From the NCBI GenBank assembly GCA_049320885.1, contig JBMORA010000031.1:1-64000 (forward strand): DNA of 64,000 nt, read 5' to 3'. A program made the position numbers. The DNA comes from Thermodesulfobacteriota bacterium (GTDB lineage Bacteria; Desulfobacterota; Desulfobacteria; Desulfobacterales; SURF-7). Below, in pieces: positions 30,001 through 39,000 of this stretch. How positions within the stretch are numbered: position 1 is the stretch's first letter; each line of letters opens with the position of its first letter.

Positions 30001-33000
30001 CACCCATTTCCGCCAATATCCGGTGGTCAGCCATGCATGCACTTTTTCCTTCAGCACCGGCCCCTTGGGGGAAGAAAGACCGCGACCATGAACAACCAGC
30101 ACCGCGCGTTTACGGGTGGCGATGGCGTATGTCAGGAAGGCATCCAGGGCGGCCCGGGCATCCGCCACCCCGTAGCCATGCAGATCGATATGATCCTGAA
30201 TGGAAAAATCTCCGTGATGCAGGCGCCTGGCCATGATCGGGTGCACCCGGTATCCGAGGCCCTCCCGGTATTCAGGGGTCAGGGAAACCACAAATCCCTG
30301 CCCGGTTTCCACCAACTCGTTCAATTTCCGGAAGGTTTCCGCTTCCGGATGATCGCTGGTTTCCTTCGGTTTCGTATCCGGTGCGGTTTTTTCCCGCCGG
30401 TTGCTCCTGGAAAACGGAGTGACATCCGCCATGGCCGCCAGAAACAAACGACTCTCCTGCTCCGGGTCTGGCTCGGAGCAGGCGTCGGCCTTCAGAACCG
30501 CCGGCGGCTGGAACGGCCTGATGCGCTCGGAACCGCACCGGTTGCGTGGGGACGGAAAAAGGCCGCTGGTTTTCATCAGATTTCCCAAATCGGCAAAAGA
30601 GGTACAGCATGGGGCTTTGTTGTGTGATTTCATTCATCCCCCTTTTTATCGGGATCTGAATATCTCCCGTAACATTTCGCCGGTTCGGTACCGGAAATAG
30701 TCCGAGATGATCCGACCGTGATCAAACACCATGGGACCGGGAAGGGCGTGTTCATGGAAAACACCCGCTTCCTTGGCGTCGTCATCCGCTTTGGGCGCGC
30801 CTTTGGCCCTGGCGATGAATACCACGCTGACGGTATGGTGCCGGGGATCACGGGCAGGATCCGAATAGGCGTGAAACTGCTCCACCAGGCTTACATCCAA
30901 ACAGGTTTCCTCCCTGGCTTCCCGGCGGGCGGCCGCCTCCAGCGTTTCACCGTAATCCACAAACCCGCCGGGCAAGGCCCAACCATGGGGAGGATTCTTG
31001 CGACGAATCAGCACGATACCCTCATCCACTTCGATGATGATATCCACGGTCAGGTATGGATTCTTCGGCAACATTGTCAACGGACGGCTCTGCTCTTTCT
31101 CCCCGACCGGATGGAAACCGGAAAATTCCCGCGTATCCAACCCCGGCCCCGACGAAATTCATGTAGATGACTGGATGGTATCCGTATTCCTTAATAGAAC
31201 ACAATGGAGCCGAAATCAAGTCACCCGGTATGGTTTTTGCGCGCCTGGTCACATAAAGCGGTAGGTAATGAACCCCATTATACTGTATTGATTGTATATT
31301 TCCGCAATCTGGTCATAACGGGCCGCGGCGTTGAAATGCCATGCGCGGTGAAATCGTTTCAGATAGTCCAGACTTCCGTTGGCTCCGATCCTGGATATGG
31401 TTTCAGCCGAATGTTCTTCCGAAAACTGATAGCTGGGGCCGCCGCTCAGGGATATCCGTTCGTCCGGTCCGAAGGCATAGTCCAATTGAAGATTCAGGGC
31501 GTTGTTGAGGAATAGTCGCGGACTGTAATACCCCCCCGGCAGCGGCGAAGCCTCGGTGTCCTCAAATCCCCCGTGATCCTCGGAATAATGGGTGAGGGAA
31601 AACAGATCCGAAATCGAGACGGTGAAAACGTCTCTTTCCATCACCGGCAGTTTCGCCTTGGCTCCGATCCCGTAAACGGCGTTGTTTCCGGCAGTATCGG
31701 CGCTGATGAAACCGGCATGGGGTGTCGCCTCTATATGAAAACGCTTATCCGTGTACGAGATCTCGCAAAAGGCGGTGTTGGATCGGGCGGCGCCGATTTT
31801 GGCCCCGGTGACGGGGTCCGTGCCGCCGCCGATGGAAAGCAGGGAATCGGTCTTGATCTCCCGCCGGATTCCGGCGGACAGCTCCAGATCCGATCGCCGG
31901 AACAGATACTGCAACAGGAACTCCCCGGCGCCCTCGGCTTCTTCCATGGCATGATAGGATGCCGAGGCTTCCAGGTTCCGTTCCGGATCCAGCCGGTATT
32001 GGAGATCCAGCGTAAAAAACCGGCCGTGAATATCCTCCTTGTCCCGCCAATATTTTTCCAGGCCGATTTTCCCGCCGCAGGTGAGAAACGGTGTCGGGTC
32101 CCCGCTGCCGCCCGTGGCCAACTGAAAGCCGCTCAGTTCATAATTCTCCTCATCACTGCCTTGATCGAAAAACCGGACGCCCGCCATGACTCGCGGCTCA
32201 CGGCCTTTCATCAAATCCCGTTCCAGGGAGGATGCTCCGATGTTTCCGGGTTGATAGGCCAGGGCCTTACGGGAATGATGGATGGCCATGTCGTTGTCGC
32301 CTTTCCAGGCGTAGGCATTGGCCAGCCCCTGGTGGGCCGCGGGATTACCGGGCTGCCGCTGCAGGATGACATGGTACTGGGCAATGGCCTTGTCCAGGTT
32401 TTCCTTCCGGGAGCCCAGCAGCCGGGCGTATTTCAAGCGGATATCGACCCTGCCCGGATGCTTCCCGACCAGTTTTTCATATTGGCCGGCGGCCTGTTCG
32501 TAAGTGGTCTTTTCACCGGCCAGCAGCTCCGCATATGCCAGCCTGGTATCCAGACGATCCCGTCTCTTCAACACGGTTTCGAACTGGATTTTGGCGCTGT
32601 CGAAATGACTGCCGGTCCTGGCCAGGGCCTTGGCATATTCCTCCCGCATATCCAGATCTCCCGGGTATCGGTCCACCAGCTTGCGGTACTGGGAAACCGC
32701 ATCTTTTCGATGGGCGGCTTCTTTTGCATACAGGCGGGCCAGTTGGAGATTGATTTCCCGGTCCCCGGGATATTTCCGGGCGATTTTTTCATATTCGGCG
32801 ATGGCCTCCTTGCGGTAGCGGCCATCCCAGAGCAGCAGTTTCCGGTATTCGGCGTTGAGGACTTTGTTTTCGGGGTTGGAAGCGCCCAGTTTCCGATATT
32901 CTTCCACCGCCTCGCCCATGGTTTTTTTATCCGCCGCCAGCAATTTGGCCAGTTTATGACGATTGACCCGGTCCTCCCGGACCGCCAGGCCCATGCGGTA

Positions 33001-36000: not shown

Positions 36001-39000
36001 AACTGAAATCGGCCTTCCGCCCCTTTCCCGGTTTCATCAGCGTCGGTTTACCGGTCTTGCGGTCCAGATAGACGATTTCCGGCGGCAGGGGCAGTTTTTC
36101 CTGCAGGAAAATCCATTCCAGGATTTCATAGGAGGAAACCACCAGTTCCTTCCAGGGATGTTCCTCATCCACCTCGGCAAACAATTCATAGGCGTAGGGC
36201 GCCAGATAGGCAACGTGGACGGTGGGAAACGCCTCCTGGAGACTCCAGTTCCCGGCGGTGGGATAGTATTTGTCCTGGAGCCGAATGACCTCGTTTCTCC
36301 AGATGTCCTGAATGATCCTACGGGCGTCATCCCGGTATGCAGCCGTGGAGAATTTTTCCGCCGCCAAAAGGAGGGCCAGGGCGATATCCGTATCTGCATC
36401 CGTGGCGGAATTGCGGTCCTGTTTCCATTTCCAGGCGAACAAGTGATCCCCCCGGACCATCAGATTCTCCCGTGTCCACTGGTAGACCTGTTTGAAGGTC
36501 CGGTGATCGTTGGACCAGACCGCCCGCAGCAGGGCGTAGCCCTGCCCCTCCGAGGTCGTGATGTTGTTCTCGTCGAGACTGATCACCCGACCTTCCCGGA
36601 TATACGTGTATTTGTAGAAACTCCACAGTTCGTGAAGGCTGTTGACCAGGGCATGGGATTTCCCGGCCGGCGCCGCCGCCAGGGGAAGCGGGGAAGGCAG
36701 GAGCCAGAAGGCGGCGGCCAGCAGCGGGATGGTTACAAGTGGATGTGACAATACAATTCTGTTCATGCCGTCCGTGAGTCGTCCTTGAAAAAAAAGAGAC
36801 TCTATAAATCAGCGCCCCCCTGCTGTCAATCGTTTTACCAGTGGGGCTGGTTCCCGATTCTTTTTCCCATGATTTCCAGAGTGTCCGTTACCACCATGAA
36901 GGTCTGGGGATCCATACGACGGATCAGTTGTTTCAGACGGGCCAGTTCCTGAAAGGTAATCACCGTATACAGGATTTTTTCCTCCTGGCCGGAATACCCG
37001 CCCTCCCCCGGGATCACCGTGACGCCGCGCTTGATTTCGTTCATGATGCCGTCGGCGATCTTCCGCCATTGCGGGGAAATGATCAGCACCGCCTTGCGCT
37101 GGCTCAGCCCGGTCACCACCAGATTGATGATCCGGGAGGATACGAAAATAAAAATCAGGGTATACAGAGCGCTCTCCAGGGAAAAGAGCAACCCGGCGGC
37201 GGCCAGCAGCAGAAAATTGAAGGCCAGCACCGTGCTCCCGATCCGGATGGAGAAGCGTTTCATCAGAATGATGGACAGGATATCCGTGCCGCCGGATGAA
37301 CCGTAGGAGCGCAACGTGATCCCGGCGCCGGCGCCGAACAGAATCCCGGCCAGCAGCGCGCTCAAAAGCGGATCATGGACGTCAAAGGGGACCTGAATCC
37401 AGGATACCGCCAGGGTGAACATCAGCATTCCCACCAGGCTGTAGTAGAAAAACCGCCGGCTGACATAAATCCACCCCAGGACGAACAGGGGGATATTCAG
37501 GAGGAAATACAGGAGGCCCATATCCCAGGACGGCAGGATGAAATACACCAGCATGGCCAGCCCGGTCACGCCGCTGCTGATGAACTGCCTGGGAATCAGG
37601 ATGCCGTTCACCGCCAGGGCGCAGAGCAGGCTGCCGGCCAGCATGAGCGCCAGGTTCCAGGCGATAACGCCGGGGGATGAGCTGCCGGCTTTTTCAACCG
37701 AAATCGTTTTTTCGTCGGATGTCATGAAAGAGCCCTTTCGTCAGGGGGTTGCGAAGAACAAATCCGCTACCTTCTCAAACGGTTATGGGATTCCGCGCTT
37801 GTCCATGCGGCTTCCGGAATAATCTGTTTAGCTTTTTTTGGCGCTTGTTTCAAGGAATCCGCTGCGGTTGGTTCCGCGCGCGGGAAAAAATCCGGGATTC
37901 CAGGGGACCTCGGGGAACAAGGTCACGATTATTTTCTTGACTTTTTATGTTTCCAAATTATATTGTGCACGATAATTTTGAACGCCATATAAATGAAGAA
38001 CCCCAACGGGCCTGACCACAACCAGAAAGGATAGCCCCAAATGAACAAACCGATACTGCTCACCGTCTGCACCATGATGCTGGCCGGCTGCGCGGGCAGT
38101 CCCCCTAAACACATCGGCCTGCGGGACGGCCGTCTGGCGCCCTGCCCCGGCAAACCCAATTGCGTCATCAGCGACGCCAACGATGCGGAACATTATATCG
38201 ACCCCATCCGGTACACCGGCGACCGGAAAGCCGCCATGCAGCGGCTCAAAGCCGTGGCGATCTCCTTTGACCGGAGCCGCATCGTGTCCGCAGACGAGCG
38301 CTACCTGCACATGGAATTCAAATCGCTGGTGTTCCGGTTTGTCGACGATGTGGAATTTTATTTTCCCGACGAACCCCTCATCCACGTCCGCTCCGCCTCG
38401 CGGATCGGCTATTCCGATCTGGGGGTCAACCGGAAACGGGTGGAGGCCATCCGCGCGAAATTCAATGAAGGCAAGTAACCACAACCGATTCCGGGGAAAT
38501 TTCAGGGATCGGGCAAGGGGGCTGCGATGAACCGCGACGAACTGCTGCGCCTGGACAACCAGCTGTGTTTTCTCCTGTACGCGACCTTCCGGAAAATCGC
38601 CGGGCTCTACCGGCCGCTGCTGGATAAACTGGGAATCACCTATCCCCAATATCTGGTGATGCTGGTGCTGTGGGAGCATGGCCCCCTTTCGGTGGGTGAA
38701 ATCGGGGCCCGCCTGCACCTGGACTCCGGAACCCTCACGCCCCTGCTGAAACGGCTGGAAAAACAGGCGCTGGTCCACCGGAATCGCTCGGCGGAGGATG
38801 AACGCAGGGTCACCATCCGCCTGACGGAAGCGGGCGCGGCCATGAAGGCGTCGGCCTACAGTATCCCGGAAGCCATGATCTGCAACAGCGGCGTGACCGC
38901 GTCCCAGTATTGGACCCTTAAAAAAGAACTCGATTCCCTGCTGGCTCAAATCCCGACATCCGGACAATGTAAAAAGGAAACCATGCATCATGAGCATCCG

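Follow-up and report, generated by a model that had tools for sequence, protein, structure and literature searches.

Organization of the locus

The window analyzed, a 64,000-nucleotide stretch of contig JBMORA010000031.1 from a Thermodesulfobacteriota bacterium, carries two neighbouring genes on the reverse strand (Table 1). The first, an ORF with exact coordinates, encodes a single chain, the fusion protein P0001, in the order signal peptide, GH8, TM2-4, GT2, TM5-8, PilZ1 and PilZ2. Pfam placed GH8 at residues 47-296 (E 1e-29), GT2 at about 494-775 and PilZ at 909-1002; the predicted structure has a pLDDT of 90.7 and a pTM of 0.84. The second gene, 4 nt away, encodes P0002 (708 amino acids), and the AAGGA upstream of it overlaps the end of the fusion gene. 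ORFs, Pfam matches and coordinates thus agree with an earlier note on this DNA, which reported GH8, GT2 and PilZ in one chain followed by bcsC. The candidate promoter is missing from the motif scan listing because position 6 of its -10 box is A.

Table 1. Features of the two-gene locus (positions in the window; aa, amino acids).
Feature	Position	Strand	Basis or detail
Fusion gene P0001	33380..36766	-	1128 aa; Pfam and structure model
Candidate sigma-70 promoter TTGACA-17 nt-TATAGA	36801..36829	-	68-nt gap upstream of fusion gene; by eye
Signal-peptide-like N-terminus, ~aa 1-31	36674..36766	-	Short hydrophobic core, often ending AxA (by eye)
GH8 (alpha/alpha)6 glucanase domain, aa 32-376	35639..36673	-	Pfam; fold match to 1kwf
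GH8 acid E73	36548-36550	-	Aligned to CelA E95
GH8 base D257	35996-35998	-	Aligned to CelA D278
GH8-TM2 junction, aa 372-395	35582..35653	-	Conservation 0.77
Three TM helices, aa 396-476, equivalent to BcsA TM2-TM4	35339..35581	-	Structural alignment; no TM1
GT2 catalytic domain, aa 494-725	34592..35287	-	DD531, DTD578, TED672, QRRRW710, gating partner E702
TM5-TM8 and gating loop (FKVTPK 833-838), aa 735-904	34055..34564	-	Structure model and alignment
PilZ1, aa 909-1002	33761..34042	-	Pfam E 4e-13; RxxxR (R911, R915), DxSxxG
PilZ2-like beta-barrel, aa 1046-1124	33395..33631	-	RxxxR (R1046, R1050), NxSxxG (1072-1077)
BcsC-like outer-membrane exporter P0002	31249..33375	-	Pfam, structure model, fold match
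Periplasmic TPR solenoid, aa 27-389	32209..33297	-	21 helices, ~10 TPRs (model)
16-stranded beta-barrel, aa 395-706	31258..32193	-	16 strands in model

Homologs were the best 120 of 336 matches, ranked by score within a length filter of 620-1974 amino acids and including P0001 itself. The N-terminus is poorly conserved (mean column conservation 0.30) and, judged by eye, looks like a cleavable signal peptide rather than an anchor; of the "N-terminal signal/TM" proposed earlier, the signal is kept and the anchor is not. The junction ahead of TM2 forms two short helices in the model (378-382 and 387-393), with F381, P384, F390 and P395 each present in 113-119 of the best 120 of 336 homologs.

A second PilZ-like domain and the absence of TM1 had been overlooked in the earlier note. 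The full five-residue motif occurs at PilZ1 in 108 and at PilZ2 in 107 of the same best 120 of 336. The second domain is all-beta in the predicted structure. Pfam gave no match to this copy in P0001, the PilZ1 profile matches it at E 0.0035, and PF07238 matches the region at E <= 1 in 8 of 20 aligned homologs (best 0.0026).

The GH8 domain

The domain is an (alpha/alpha)6 barrel with acid and base at the positions of CelA E95 and D278, whose catalytic roles are given in PMC2953488, and its base is of the GH8a type. Five amino acids (E73/D123/D125/Y256/D257) are invariant in all of the best 120 of 336 homologs. The arginine three residues past the base is replaced by proline in P0001. The earlier term "BcsZ-like" holds at the level of the GH8 family and no further: the BcsZ profile NF008305 scored 92.2, under its cut-off of 299, and a quick tree, in which the non-BcsZ rows were picked as nearest matches, split six operon BcsZ rows from the fused GH8 and those matches (SH-aLRT 100). 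This score and the tree split speak against orthology with operon BcsZ.

The proline next to the base could suggest that the enzyme works poorly or not at all and that the domain chiefly guides the glucan and docks BcsC, so replacing BcsB in function, as the earlier note implied. Conservation in the pore peaks at the first TPRs, and E. coli TPR1 docks on BcsB (PMC11379886); the GH6 domain of tunicate CesA has lost its catalytic aspartate (PMC7464555). The five invariant residues speak against such a role, as does an unfused relative (locus L036, below) lacking both BcsB and GH8, and we regard it as extremely improbable.

The synthase and its product

The synthase part of P0001 contains the D,D,D,QxxRW signature and the KAG, QTPH and FxVTxK motifs. 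Its TM3-8 channel and BcsA fold match 9b8v at Z 42.3 (638 aligned, rmsd 2.9), the best fold matches being BcsA from E. coli and from R. sphaeroides. The structural alignment begins at P0001 residue 387, equivalent to R. sphaeroides BcsA 36 (4p00) and E. coli BcsA 170 (9b8v), and Y435 corresponds to Tyr80 of BcsA; TM1, part of the groove docking the BcsB anchor (PMC8892547 section 7), is absent. The "complete BcsA" described earlier is therefore complete in GT2, PilZ and fold but not in TM1. BcsA equivalog cut-offs were not reached (TIGR03030 525 against 699.1; NF008558 392.5 against 992).

In the GT2-core tree the fusion clade (100/100) lies on the BcsA side, and its split from BgsA-type/HlyD-linked synthases is 100/100; the trees include no RiGT2 or CrdS sequence. 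Hand-mapping of 33 specificity positions (PMC6821405 S8 Table) assigned 12 to cellulose only, among them H581, H607, F648, Y810 and E811, and six to CrdS/BgsA only (Q616, Q629, R640, V649, A701 and Y707, each in 110-120 of the best 120 of 336 homologs); six fit neither group, six are shared, one is weak and two were not mapped. Among the four R. sphaeroides residues that hydrogen-bond the 1,4-chain (N298/Y302/N412/R423; PMC6821405 Table 2), three are altered (N298 to Q629, Y302 to N633, N412 to A743) and R423 is kept as R754. The FFCGS motif reads FFVGS. Cellulose is the likeliest product candidate by these residues, but the product is not pinned to it because the channel residues are only partly cellulose-type.

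The same machine might instead make a mixed-linkage (1,3;1,4) or other non-cellulose beta-glucan, with GH8 as the matched glucanase. The six curdlan/BgsA-type positions fit this, and the GH8 folds equally well on the beta-1,3-1,4-glucanase 5xd0 (Z 39.5) and CelA (1kwf, Z 39.3). RiGT2, with the same TM2-8/PilZ/no-bcsB layout, makes mixed-linkage glucan (PMC10374906). D630, however, is not the arginine of CrdS/BgsA, the five cellulose-type residues named above are kept, and the clade groups with BcsA. We consider this reading unlikely.

The BcsC-like pore

P0002 contains a signal peptide, a TPR solenoid, a 16-strand barrel and a BCSC_C match (493-658, E 8e-10; Pfam also found the TPRs), and was predicted at pLDDT 92.6. 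Its top fold match is BcsC 6tzk (Z 30.7), followed by PelB (25.4) and 4y25 (24.2); the E. coli BcsC barrel likewise has 16 strands (PMC11379886). Conservation is 0.75 in the first 100 amino acids against 0.36-0.60 elsewhere. The score for the BcsC equivalog NF008520, whose full length includes 19 TPRs, was 58.9 against a cut-off of 858. Other forms of the pore (518-542 amino acids) probably contain about five TPRs.

Such a short arm would suit a GH8 placed where chains emerge, so that each one is clipped and short glucans or oligomers are exported and diffuse to the pore. This is the logic of NdvB, a periplasmic GH fused to GT2, except that the hydrolase is inverting and the products would be linear, not cyclic; NdvB and the Orphan enzymes have the identical signal-GH-TM-GT2 layout (PMC10237404). 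Both catalytic residues are invariant, and the GH8 is conserved like the synthase (0.73 against 0.79-0.83). Against it, nearly all loci retain the cellulose-guiding solenoid and the BcsC barrel, and the unfused L036 has a similar short pore without GH8. Chain clipping seems to us quite unlikely.

Search for BcsB

No BcsB (PF03170) was found in the source genome, which is 98.24% complete, or in 37 plus four further genomes, the completeness figure being for the source genome only. The profile matched the controls: E. coli, a plasmid bcsB and four of five same-order genomes with unfused bcsA. Six BcsB queries found nothing in the source genome (best E 0.038 over 115 amino acids), nor did a profile built from them (best E 2.1). 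The earlier failure to find BcsB is thus upheld, including against a divergent BcsB as far as these searches of the source genome reach. bcsD (PF03500), the mark of type I, had no match in the source genome, nor in any control genome.

The synthase may still need a partner, either an undetectably divergent BcsB or a small membrane protein from another locus. In E. coli and R. sphaeroides the C-terminal tail of BcsB is essential (PMC8892547), none of the searches run would pick up a short protein resembling that tail, and PF03170 missed one of the five same-order genomes. Such a partner is nevertheless very unlikely, given 0/42 genomes by Pfam, empty query and profile searches, the absent TM1, the lack of a third conserved neighbour and the existence of one-ORF forms (below).

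A large unfused family shares the synthase layout: of 121 proteins, 85 begin at TM2, 102 have two PilZ-profile matches and none has GH8. The sole readable unfused TM1-less locus, L036, carries a short bcsC-like gene, and its genome, the only one checked for an unfused relative, yielded neither BcsB nor GH8. BcsB independence seems to belong to the synthase lineage, and probably did not arise from the cellulase, because unfused relatives also lack TM1 and have tandem PilZ domains. The idea that the cellulase occupies the place of BcsB stands as topology; as an account of BcsB independence it is weakened by these GH8-free relatives.

Distribution

The fusion is encoded by many uncultured bacteria and by the cultured nitrifier Nitrospira moscoviensis (L018). 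PF01270 and PF00535 occur in all and PF07238 in 119 of the best 120 of 336 homologs, as claimed for GH8 and GT2, a count that favours fusions by construction because of score ranking within the length filter; a less biased figure is that, of 61 metagenome loci with GH8 and GT2, 60 have the two in a single ORF. SEGQ, E673-D674 and Q710-R711-x-R713-W714 are invariant in the best 120 of 336, and the threonine of TED, also called invariant before, is found in 119. A bcsC-like gene lies directly downstream in 34 of 36 fusion loci, both exceptions being at contig ends (the previous count of 17 of 36 was too low), and adjoins the fusion in 69 of 77 loci of a larger set; none was found downstream at L163. 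No third conserved neighbour was found across phyla in fusion loci. These results support the GH8-BcsA fusion and BcsC-like pore as a real, conserved two-gene cassette. The source genome contains galU above cut-off and 18 GGDEF matches.

In six protein clusters GH8, synthase and BcsC occur in a single ORF, stop-free in three assemblies. The BcsC signal peptide is retained inside the ORF, which suggests a polyprotein, and the joined modules suggest that GH8, synthase and pore make up the whole machine. A natural polyprotein that gives rise to an enzyme of the inner membrane as well as a barrel of the outer membrane would be unusual in bacteria. The literature searches brought up no published report, as the earlier note had also stated for the GH8-BcsA fusion. 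The single-ORF GH8-synthase-BcsC fusions are new here.

Comparison with known systems

Presence of bcsB is a criterion for Bcs types I-III (PMC13609730 Introduction). P0001 and P0002 share with these systems (E. coli bcsABZC; R. sphaeroides BcsA-BcsB; 4p00, 9b8v, 6tzk, 3qxf) the BcsA fold and motifs, a PilZ gate with the E371/R580-equivalent pair, a GH8 enzyme and TPRs plus a 16-strand barrel. They differ in that no BcsB was found, TM1 is absent, a second PilZ is present, GH8 is fused ahead of TM2 and falls outside the BcsZ group, and there are about 10 or fewer TPRs against 19. The undetected bcsB and the missing TM1 set the system apart from types I-III; type II is further disfavoured by the lack of a bcsG (PF11658) match in the source genome, the E. 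coli control having matched. The excerpts of PMC7112194 describe BcsAB and BcsZC fusions only.

Synthases without BcsB are already known from cyanobacterial type IV and RiGT2; of the "distinct minimal cellulose-secretion type" claimed earlier, the conserved two-gene cassette with no BcsB found remains, with a product that may be another glucan. Type IV (XcsA-XcsB(HlyD)-TolC) also combines a BcsB-less synthase, PilZ and an endoglucanase, but uses HlyD/TolC export and a separate endoglucanase gene instead of a BcsC-type pore and fused GH8; it is ruled out by the BcsC-like, not HlyD-like, neighbour and the lack of a third conserved gene. Romboutsia RiGT2 (Cgs) likewise has TM2-8 only, PilZ and no bcsB, but is Gram-positive, with a single PilZ and no outer-membrane pore, and no fused hydrolase is described in the available part of PMC10374906. 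NdvB and the pseudomonad Orphan GH17-GT2 proteins share signal peptide, periplasmic GH, TM and cytoplasmic GT2 in one chain, but theirs is a GH17 transglycosylase making cyclic beta-1,3-glucan without RxxxR (PMC10237404), whereas P0001 combines an inverting GH8 with tandem PilZ domains and is encoded next to a BcsC-type pore; GH8 and PilZ rule out an NdvB-type cyclic glucan synthase. Tunicate CesA (GT2-GH6) also joins cellulose synthase to a cellulase-family domain (PMC7464555), but is animal and its GH6 lacks the catalytic aspartate, while the N-terminal GH8 here keeps both catalytic residues.

Proposed mechanism

We slightly favour minimal, c-di-GMP-gated, BcsB-independent, synthase-dependent secretion of a cellulose-like beta-1,4-glucan. 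The signal peptide would export GH8, which in sequence and model hangs in the periplasm on TM2. The conserved residues suggest that c-di-GMP at PilZ1 would release an E702-R911 lock (R. sphaeroides E371-R580), PilZ2 perhaps supplying a second input, and that GT2 would add glucose from UDP-glucose and push the chain through TM3-8. BcsB would be unneeded because the synthase lineage is without TM1, like RiGT2 and plant CesA; such TM1-less, BcsB-less activity has a precedent in RiGT2 (PMC10374906). Support for TM2-3 may come from the conserved junction helices in place of BcsB. The chain would then enter the short solenoid and leave via the barrel. Cellulase activity is required for export in E. 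coli (PMC11379886), where BcsZ diffuses without stable BcsA association (preprint 10.64898/2026.08.24.745826); the tethered GH8, its catalytic residues intact, could do that job in a 1:1 ratio where the chain leaves the channel, trimming chains that stall or go astray and setting polymer free.

Several observations count against this proposal: the three altered hydrogen-bonding residues and FFVGS, the mixed-linkage product of RiGT2, its nearest architectural precedent, the proline near the GH8 base, and L163. The TPRs plus GH8 are also much shorter than the E. coli bridge of 150 + 70 angstrom (PMC11379886).

A broader reading, offered tentatively as possible but doubtful, is that an undescribed, self-sufficient, TM1-less, tandem-PilZ synthase lineage took up a GH8 from outside the BcsZ group as an integral cutter setting chain length at the channel exit. 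Some members would be a one-gene polyprotein (cutter, synthase, c-di-GMP sensor and pore), with signal peptidase freeing the pore at the internal signal peptide, and the product may not be plain cellulose.

Significance

The system bears on two questions, what cellulose synthases require a cellulase for and what makes BcsA depend on BcsB. The 2026 preprint cited above concludes that BcsZ of E. coli roams the periplasm without a tether, whereas here each synthase chain carries one GH8 with intact catalytic residues; a single point mutant of one polypeptide therefore directly tests the role of the cellulase. If BcsB-free, a system of two genes, or of one, would be smaller than any other Gram-negative machine for glucan export among the published systems compared, and useful for structure work and for cellulose production in engineered hosts. 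In Nitrospira moscoviensis the system could contribute to the floc or biofilm matrix.

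The two-gene cassette and its surroundings

The cassette was placed by the earlier note at 31249..36766, and both minus-strand ORFs were found there, namely a GH8-synthase-PilZ fusion protein (P0001) and a BcsC-like pore (P0002). The two ORFs are separated by 4 nt, and AAGGA lies immediately 5' of the P0002 start. Neighbouring genes are unrelated (YitT, NUDIX and Smr in Pfam). GC content gave no sign of recent transfer (0.57-0.58 in the two genes, 0.55-0.57 in the flanks and 0.558 in the genome), and a promoter and terminator scan yielded nothing informative. Both proteins scored below the NCBIfam cut-offs set for BcsA, BcsZ and BcsC; in public databases the fusions go under 'glycosyl hydrolase family 8' or 'cellulose synthase'.

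Coordinates of the cassette genes and of related ORFs in other genomes
Feature	Position	Strand	Content
Fusion gene, P0001	33380-36766 of the window	-	1128 aa; GH8 47-296, GT2, PilZ 909-1002 (Pfam)
Pore gene, P0002	31249-33375 of the window	-	708 aa; TPRs and BCSC_C (Pfam)
One-gene ORF	6001-10986 of L053		GH8, synthase, PilZ, BcsC-like pore
Synthase and pore	7965-12091 of L036		unfused pair

Elsewhere in the window, several ORFs of 200-790 aa without a Pfam match at E 0.01 occur at 23799-28094 (-) and 37945-40525 (-), some in the first region being overlapped by a 1459-aa plus-strand ORF (23970-28349). At 44114-46918 (+) lies the gene of a 934-aa protein that matches fn3 weakly, and a CrtC/lipocalin gene adjoins an FtsX-type permease gene at 47647-51433 (-).

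Anatomy of the fusion protein and its pore partner

The structural model of P0001 was confident (pLDDT 90.7, pTM 0.84). Residues 32-376 superposed on GH8 structures (Z 35-39.5) and residues 387-1039 on BcsA (Z 42.3 for 9b8v and 38.1 for 4p00). The acid and base of CelA, E95 and D278 according to passages of PMC2953488 (chain offset 32, from the structure entry title), align with E73 and D257 of P0001. A homolog search with P0001 gave 336 matches among 7999 candidates; in the best 120 of these, E73 and D257 were invariant (120/120), as were the DD, DxD, ED, QRxRW and KAGN motifs of the synthase. Given beside these invariant residues, a GH8 domain acting as a non-catalytic dock is extremely improbable. 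Invariance in 120 of 120 had been claimed for SEGQ, TED and the QRxRW motif; it holds for the SEGQ acid E73, ED and QRxRW, but the T of TED is kept in 119. R. sphaeroides BcsA has an E371-R580 lock, whose counterparts E702 and R911 are kept in 120/120 and 117/120, respectively.

The structural alignment begins at residue 36 of R. sphaeroides BcsA and residue 170 of E. coli BcsA, one helix before the Tyr80 helix; TM1 is therefore missing, and GH8 is joined to TM2 via a conserved junction (aa 372-395). The groove between TM1 and TM3 is normally occupied by the BcsB anchor, as passages of PMC8892547 describe. Read by eye, the N-termini of the fusion homologs look like cleavable signal peptides. 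An N-terminal helix representing BcsA TM1, with GH8 inserted behind it, is disfavoured, since the N-termini are variable and signal-peptide-like. Sequence comparison gave no support for deriving the junction from the BcsB tail (best E 3.5), the helix after it aligning to TM2; the junction may nevertheless be a functional analogue of that tail.

Following the PilZ domain, a second PilZ-like barrel (PilZ2, aa 1046-1124) is all-beta in the model, and its five motif residues are all present in 107 of the best 120 of 336 homologs. Support from PF07238 was weak and limited to 8 of 20 homologs, with no Pfam match on the window's own copy, and comparison of a PilZ2 profile with solved structures gave nothing significant.

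The model of P0002 (pLDDT 92.6) contains 21 helices and 16 strands. Its top fold matches among 48,161 chains were BcsC (Z 30.7 and 30.3), followed by PelB (25.4) and another polysaccharide secretin (24.2); Foldseek agrees on BcsC as the best match. For E. coli BcsC, excerpts of PMC11379886 give 16 strands and 19 TPRs. P0002 homologs range from 518 to ~730 aa.

Distribution of the cassette

All of the best 120 of 336 homologs, with at least 52% identity, carry GH8 and GT2, a count partly built in because of the ranking and length filter; a chance or mis-called fusion is ruled out by these homologs together with the conserved junction. GH8 and GT2 share one ORF in 60 of the 61 metagenome loci (77 in total) that hold both. 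A search using only P0001 found 37 genome loci, 36 of them fused. A bcsC-like gene lies directly 3' of the fusion in 34 of these 36, the other two (L005 and L006) stopping at a contig edge; the adjacency reported earlier thus stands, but the count of 17 of 36 was too low. Both genes are present in 69 of the 77 metagenome loci, a figure that is not independent because the query included BcsC words; seven loci stop at a contig edge and L163 is the exception. There (L163:2719-4746) a convergent gene for a CBM2-CBM2-GH5 cellulase comes after the fusion gene, with no bcsC-like gene downstream.

Where the fusion seems split, in L035, L037, L131, L177, L178 and L182, the breaks resemble frameshifts or in-frame stops that fall within domains (L182 at close inspection). 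The cassette of L037 occurs in two fragmented, inverted copies on one contig (6946-15353), probably an assembly artefact. Two candidate stand-alone GH8s, P0126 and P0131, are probably contig fragments (a 1863-bp contig; 'partial'). A stand-alone GH8 with 51% identity to the fused domain lies 3' of the bcsC-like gene in L156 (9170-10330), where the fusion is present as well.

Record titles place the fusion in Nitrospirota, Myxococcota, Bdellovibrionota, Desulfobacterales and Elusimicrobia, and the spread first proposed (Nitrospira, Myxococcota and Bdellovibrionota) is found among them. The closest named relatives, at 75% and 69%, are from Desulfobacterales MAGs. Occurrence is patchy: among 301 genomes of the window's order 3 carry the fusion (one genus only), as do 12 of 251 in the phylum to which Nitrospira moscoviensis belongs, and such patchiness suggests transfer or loss.

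One-gene forms

A profile-free search of 1.84 billion representatives yielded four proteins of 1517-1996 aa (P0123, P0124, P0125 and P0127) that combine GH8, GT2 and TPRs in a single chain; P0272 and P0273 came from another search. P0123, P0125 and P0127 are single-member clusters, read at the protein level. A stop-free 1661-aa ORF was found in three genome assemblies (L053, L054 and L055), L054 and L055 each being 86% identical to P0124; L056 agrees up to the contig end. One-gene forms are rare, and none occurred in the 77 metagenome loci. PilZ2 is absent in all of them; the C-terminal helix of the synthase leads into a hydrophobic stretch ending AxA and then the conserved first TPR, this stretch holding the position of the BcsC signal peptide in two-gene forms. 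Because the stretch has a cytoplasmic start and, at its end, a site resembling those of signal peptidase, the topology suggests that signal peptidase would cleave within the chain, and the one-gene forms are possibly polyproteins. Regions without a Pfam match at E 1e-5 precede GH8 in P0125 (residues 1-250) and P0123 (residues 1-165). Independent origins of the triple fusions were not upheld: they are scattered in quick trees, yet one clade is compatible (p-AU 0.171).

Absence of BcsB and the origin of the GH8 domain

No bcsB had been reported here or in other fusion-bearing genomes, and our analysis agrees: PF03170 was found neither in the window's own genome (98.24% complete) nor in the 37 genomes behind the loci and four further genomes, these 41 being mostly MAGs of unstated completeness, with that of N. 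moscoviensis complete. In controls, the same profile picked up a plasmid-borne BcsB and was positive in 4 of 5 genomes from the same order that have an unfused bcsA. The divergent BcsB that might have been missed was sought in the own genome with six BcsB sequences and their profile, and no match was found. Across phyla, no third gene is kept beside the cassette in the genome loci. Alongside these results, a hidden partner of the synthase is very unlikely.

The cellulase had further been proposed to sit in the periplasmic place of BcsB. No BcsB was found, but TM1 loss is shared by unfused relatives. L036 (Acidobacteriota), the single unfused member of the 37 loci, encodes a 771-aa synthase beginning at TM2 with two PilZ domains, then a 604-aa TPR/BCSC_C gene, and searches of its genome detected no BcsB and no GH8. 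A large unfused, TM1-less tandem-PilZ family (P0302-P0422) bears source names from Acidobacteriota, Nitrospirota and others; one member, P0369, has an N-terminal LysM match (E 1e-4). GH8 occurs in 0 of 121 proteins comprising the L036 synthase and its 120 best relatives, the TM3 motif lies at most 50 residues from the start in 85 of 121 (motif located in 109; a few sequences partial), and 102 of 121 have two PilZ-profile matches.

A careful 20-row tree unites the fusions in a single clade (100/100) nested among unfused tandem-PilZ proteins, and the split that separates BgsA-type and HlyD-linked synthases (100/100) leaves this clade with BcsA. L036 as the exact sister of the fusions was supported in two trees, one of them a quick tree (92 and 99 at neighbouring forks), but not once more unfused proteins were added. 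BcsA rows of the canonical, BcsB-dependent kind fall inside the tandem-PilZ synthases (with P0400, 100/100), an unrooted placement that hints at a possibly greater age of the tandem-PilZ state. We infer that TM1 loss and BcsB independence belong to the wider synthase lineage, whose gene context comes from one locus, L036, and that GH8 was added later.

The description as a BcsZ-BcsA fusion holds in that GH8 is joined to a BcsA-type synthase, but the fused GH8 clusters with other GH8s, PMT-GH8 fusions among them, and away from six BcsZ sequences taken from operons, so the fusion is no simple merger of bcsZ with bcsA. Three residues after the GH8 base, Arg occurs in 19/19 non-fusion rows with the motif read (seven rows unread) and Pro in 10/12 fusion rows. 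Many proteins of ~870 aa join a PMT_2 (GT-C) membrane glycosyltransferase to a C-terminal GH8 (P0145, P0151, P0152, P0163, P0170, P0174 and P0177), and they belong to the closest relatives that the fused GH8 has. Further fusions in the GH8 group are GT2-GH8 in reverse order (P0238, 959 aa), LPG-synthase-TM-GH8 (P0150), protein kinase-GH8 (P0157) and GH8-LysM (P0178).

Product and mechanism

From the S8 Table in PMC6821405, 33 specificity positions were mapped by hand via the 4hg6 alignment and counted in the 120 homologs: 12 are cellulose-only, six CrdS/BgsA-only, six neither, six shared, one weak and two unmapped. Among residues listed in passages of that paper as hydrogen-bonding the 1,4-chain, three of four are changed in the fusion synthase. 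RiGT2, a mixed-linkage glucan producer in passages of PMC10374906, is like the fusion synthase in having TM2-8 only and a PilZ domain without BcsB. A cellulose-like product seems likeliest; a polymer of other linkage is an unlikely, though serious, alternative. The own genome contains galU and 18 GGDEF matches, so substrate and signal supply are present. It also encodes a 919-aa GH17-GT2 protein (NdvB-like; L183:1673-4432, G000:C1) with a GH17 match just below the cut-off, and GT2 matches of similar size are common in the window's order.

The reading that we favour, at somewhat better than even chances, is that c-di-GMP would gate BcsB-free synthesis of a beta-1,4-glucan, which would be handed over to a short TPR arm and then a 16-strand pore, while the tethered GH8 would cut stalled or stray chain. 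According to excerpts of PMC11379886, E. coli export requires cellulase activity; E. coli BcsZ is without stable association to BcsA in passages of preprint 10.64898/2026.08.24.745826. Obligatory clipping by GH8, giving short chains, appears distinctly unlikely. The main point unexplained by gated synthesis with a tethered GH8 is the short periplasmic span, at most ~10 TPRs here against 150 + 70 angstrom in E. coli (excerpts of PMC11379886).

Relation to known systems

No description of a GH8-synthase fusion with a BcsC-like pore was found in the literature within our scope, which left out most subscription journals and bioRxiv supplements. The fusion is not described in the accessible portions of PMC8892547, PMC13609730, PMC12430437, 10.1101/814665, 10.1101/2020.02.11.943704, PMC6821405, PMC10374906, PMC10237404, PMC5407803, PMC2953488, PMC11379886 or PMC7464555. 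The fusions given in parts of PMC7112194 are BcsAB and BcsZC, and its supplementary files 1-12 (of 18) contain no BcsAZ or BcsZA term in the first places per term. Thermodesulfovibrio has an ordinary bcsABZC (passages of PMC5165239), and 'BcsA-BcsZ' in sections of preprint 10.64898/2026.08.24.745826 denotes a co-localisation pair, not a fusion.

The cassette is real and conserved. Precedents are known for each ingredient (BcsB-less synthases, GH-GT2 fusions and short pores), and it is therefore a variant of synthase-dependent glucan secretion and no new category. Its value lies in the direct test that it offers of the cellulase and BcsB questions, and in the one-gene forms.
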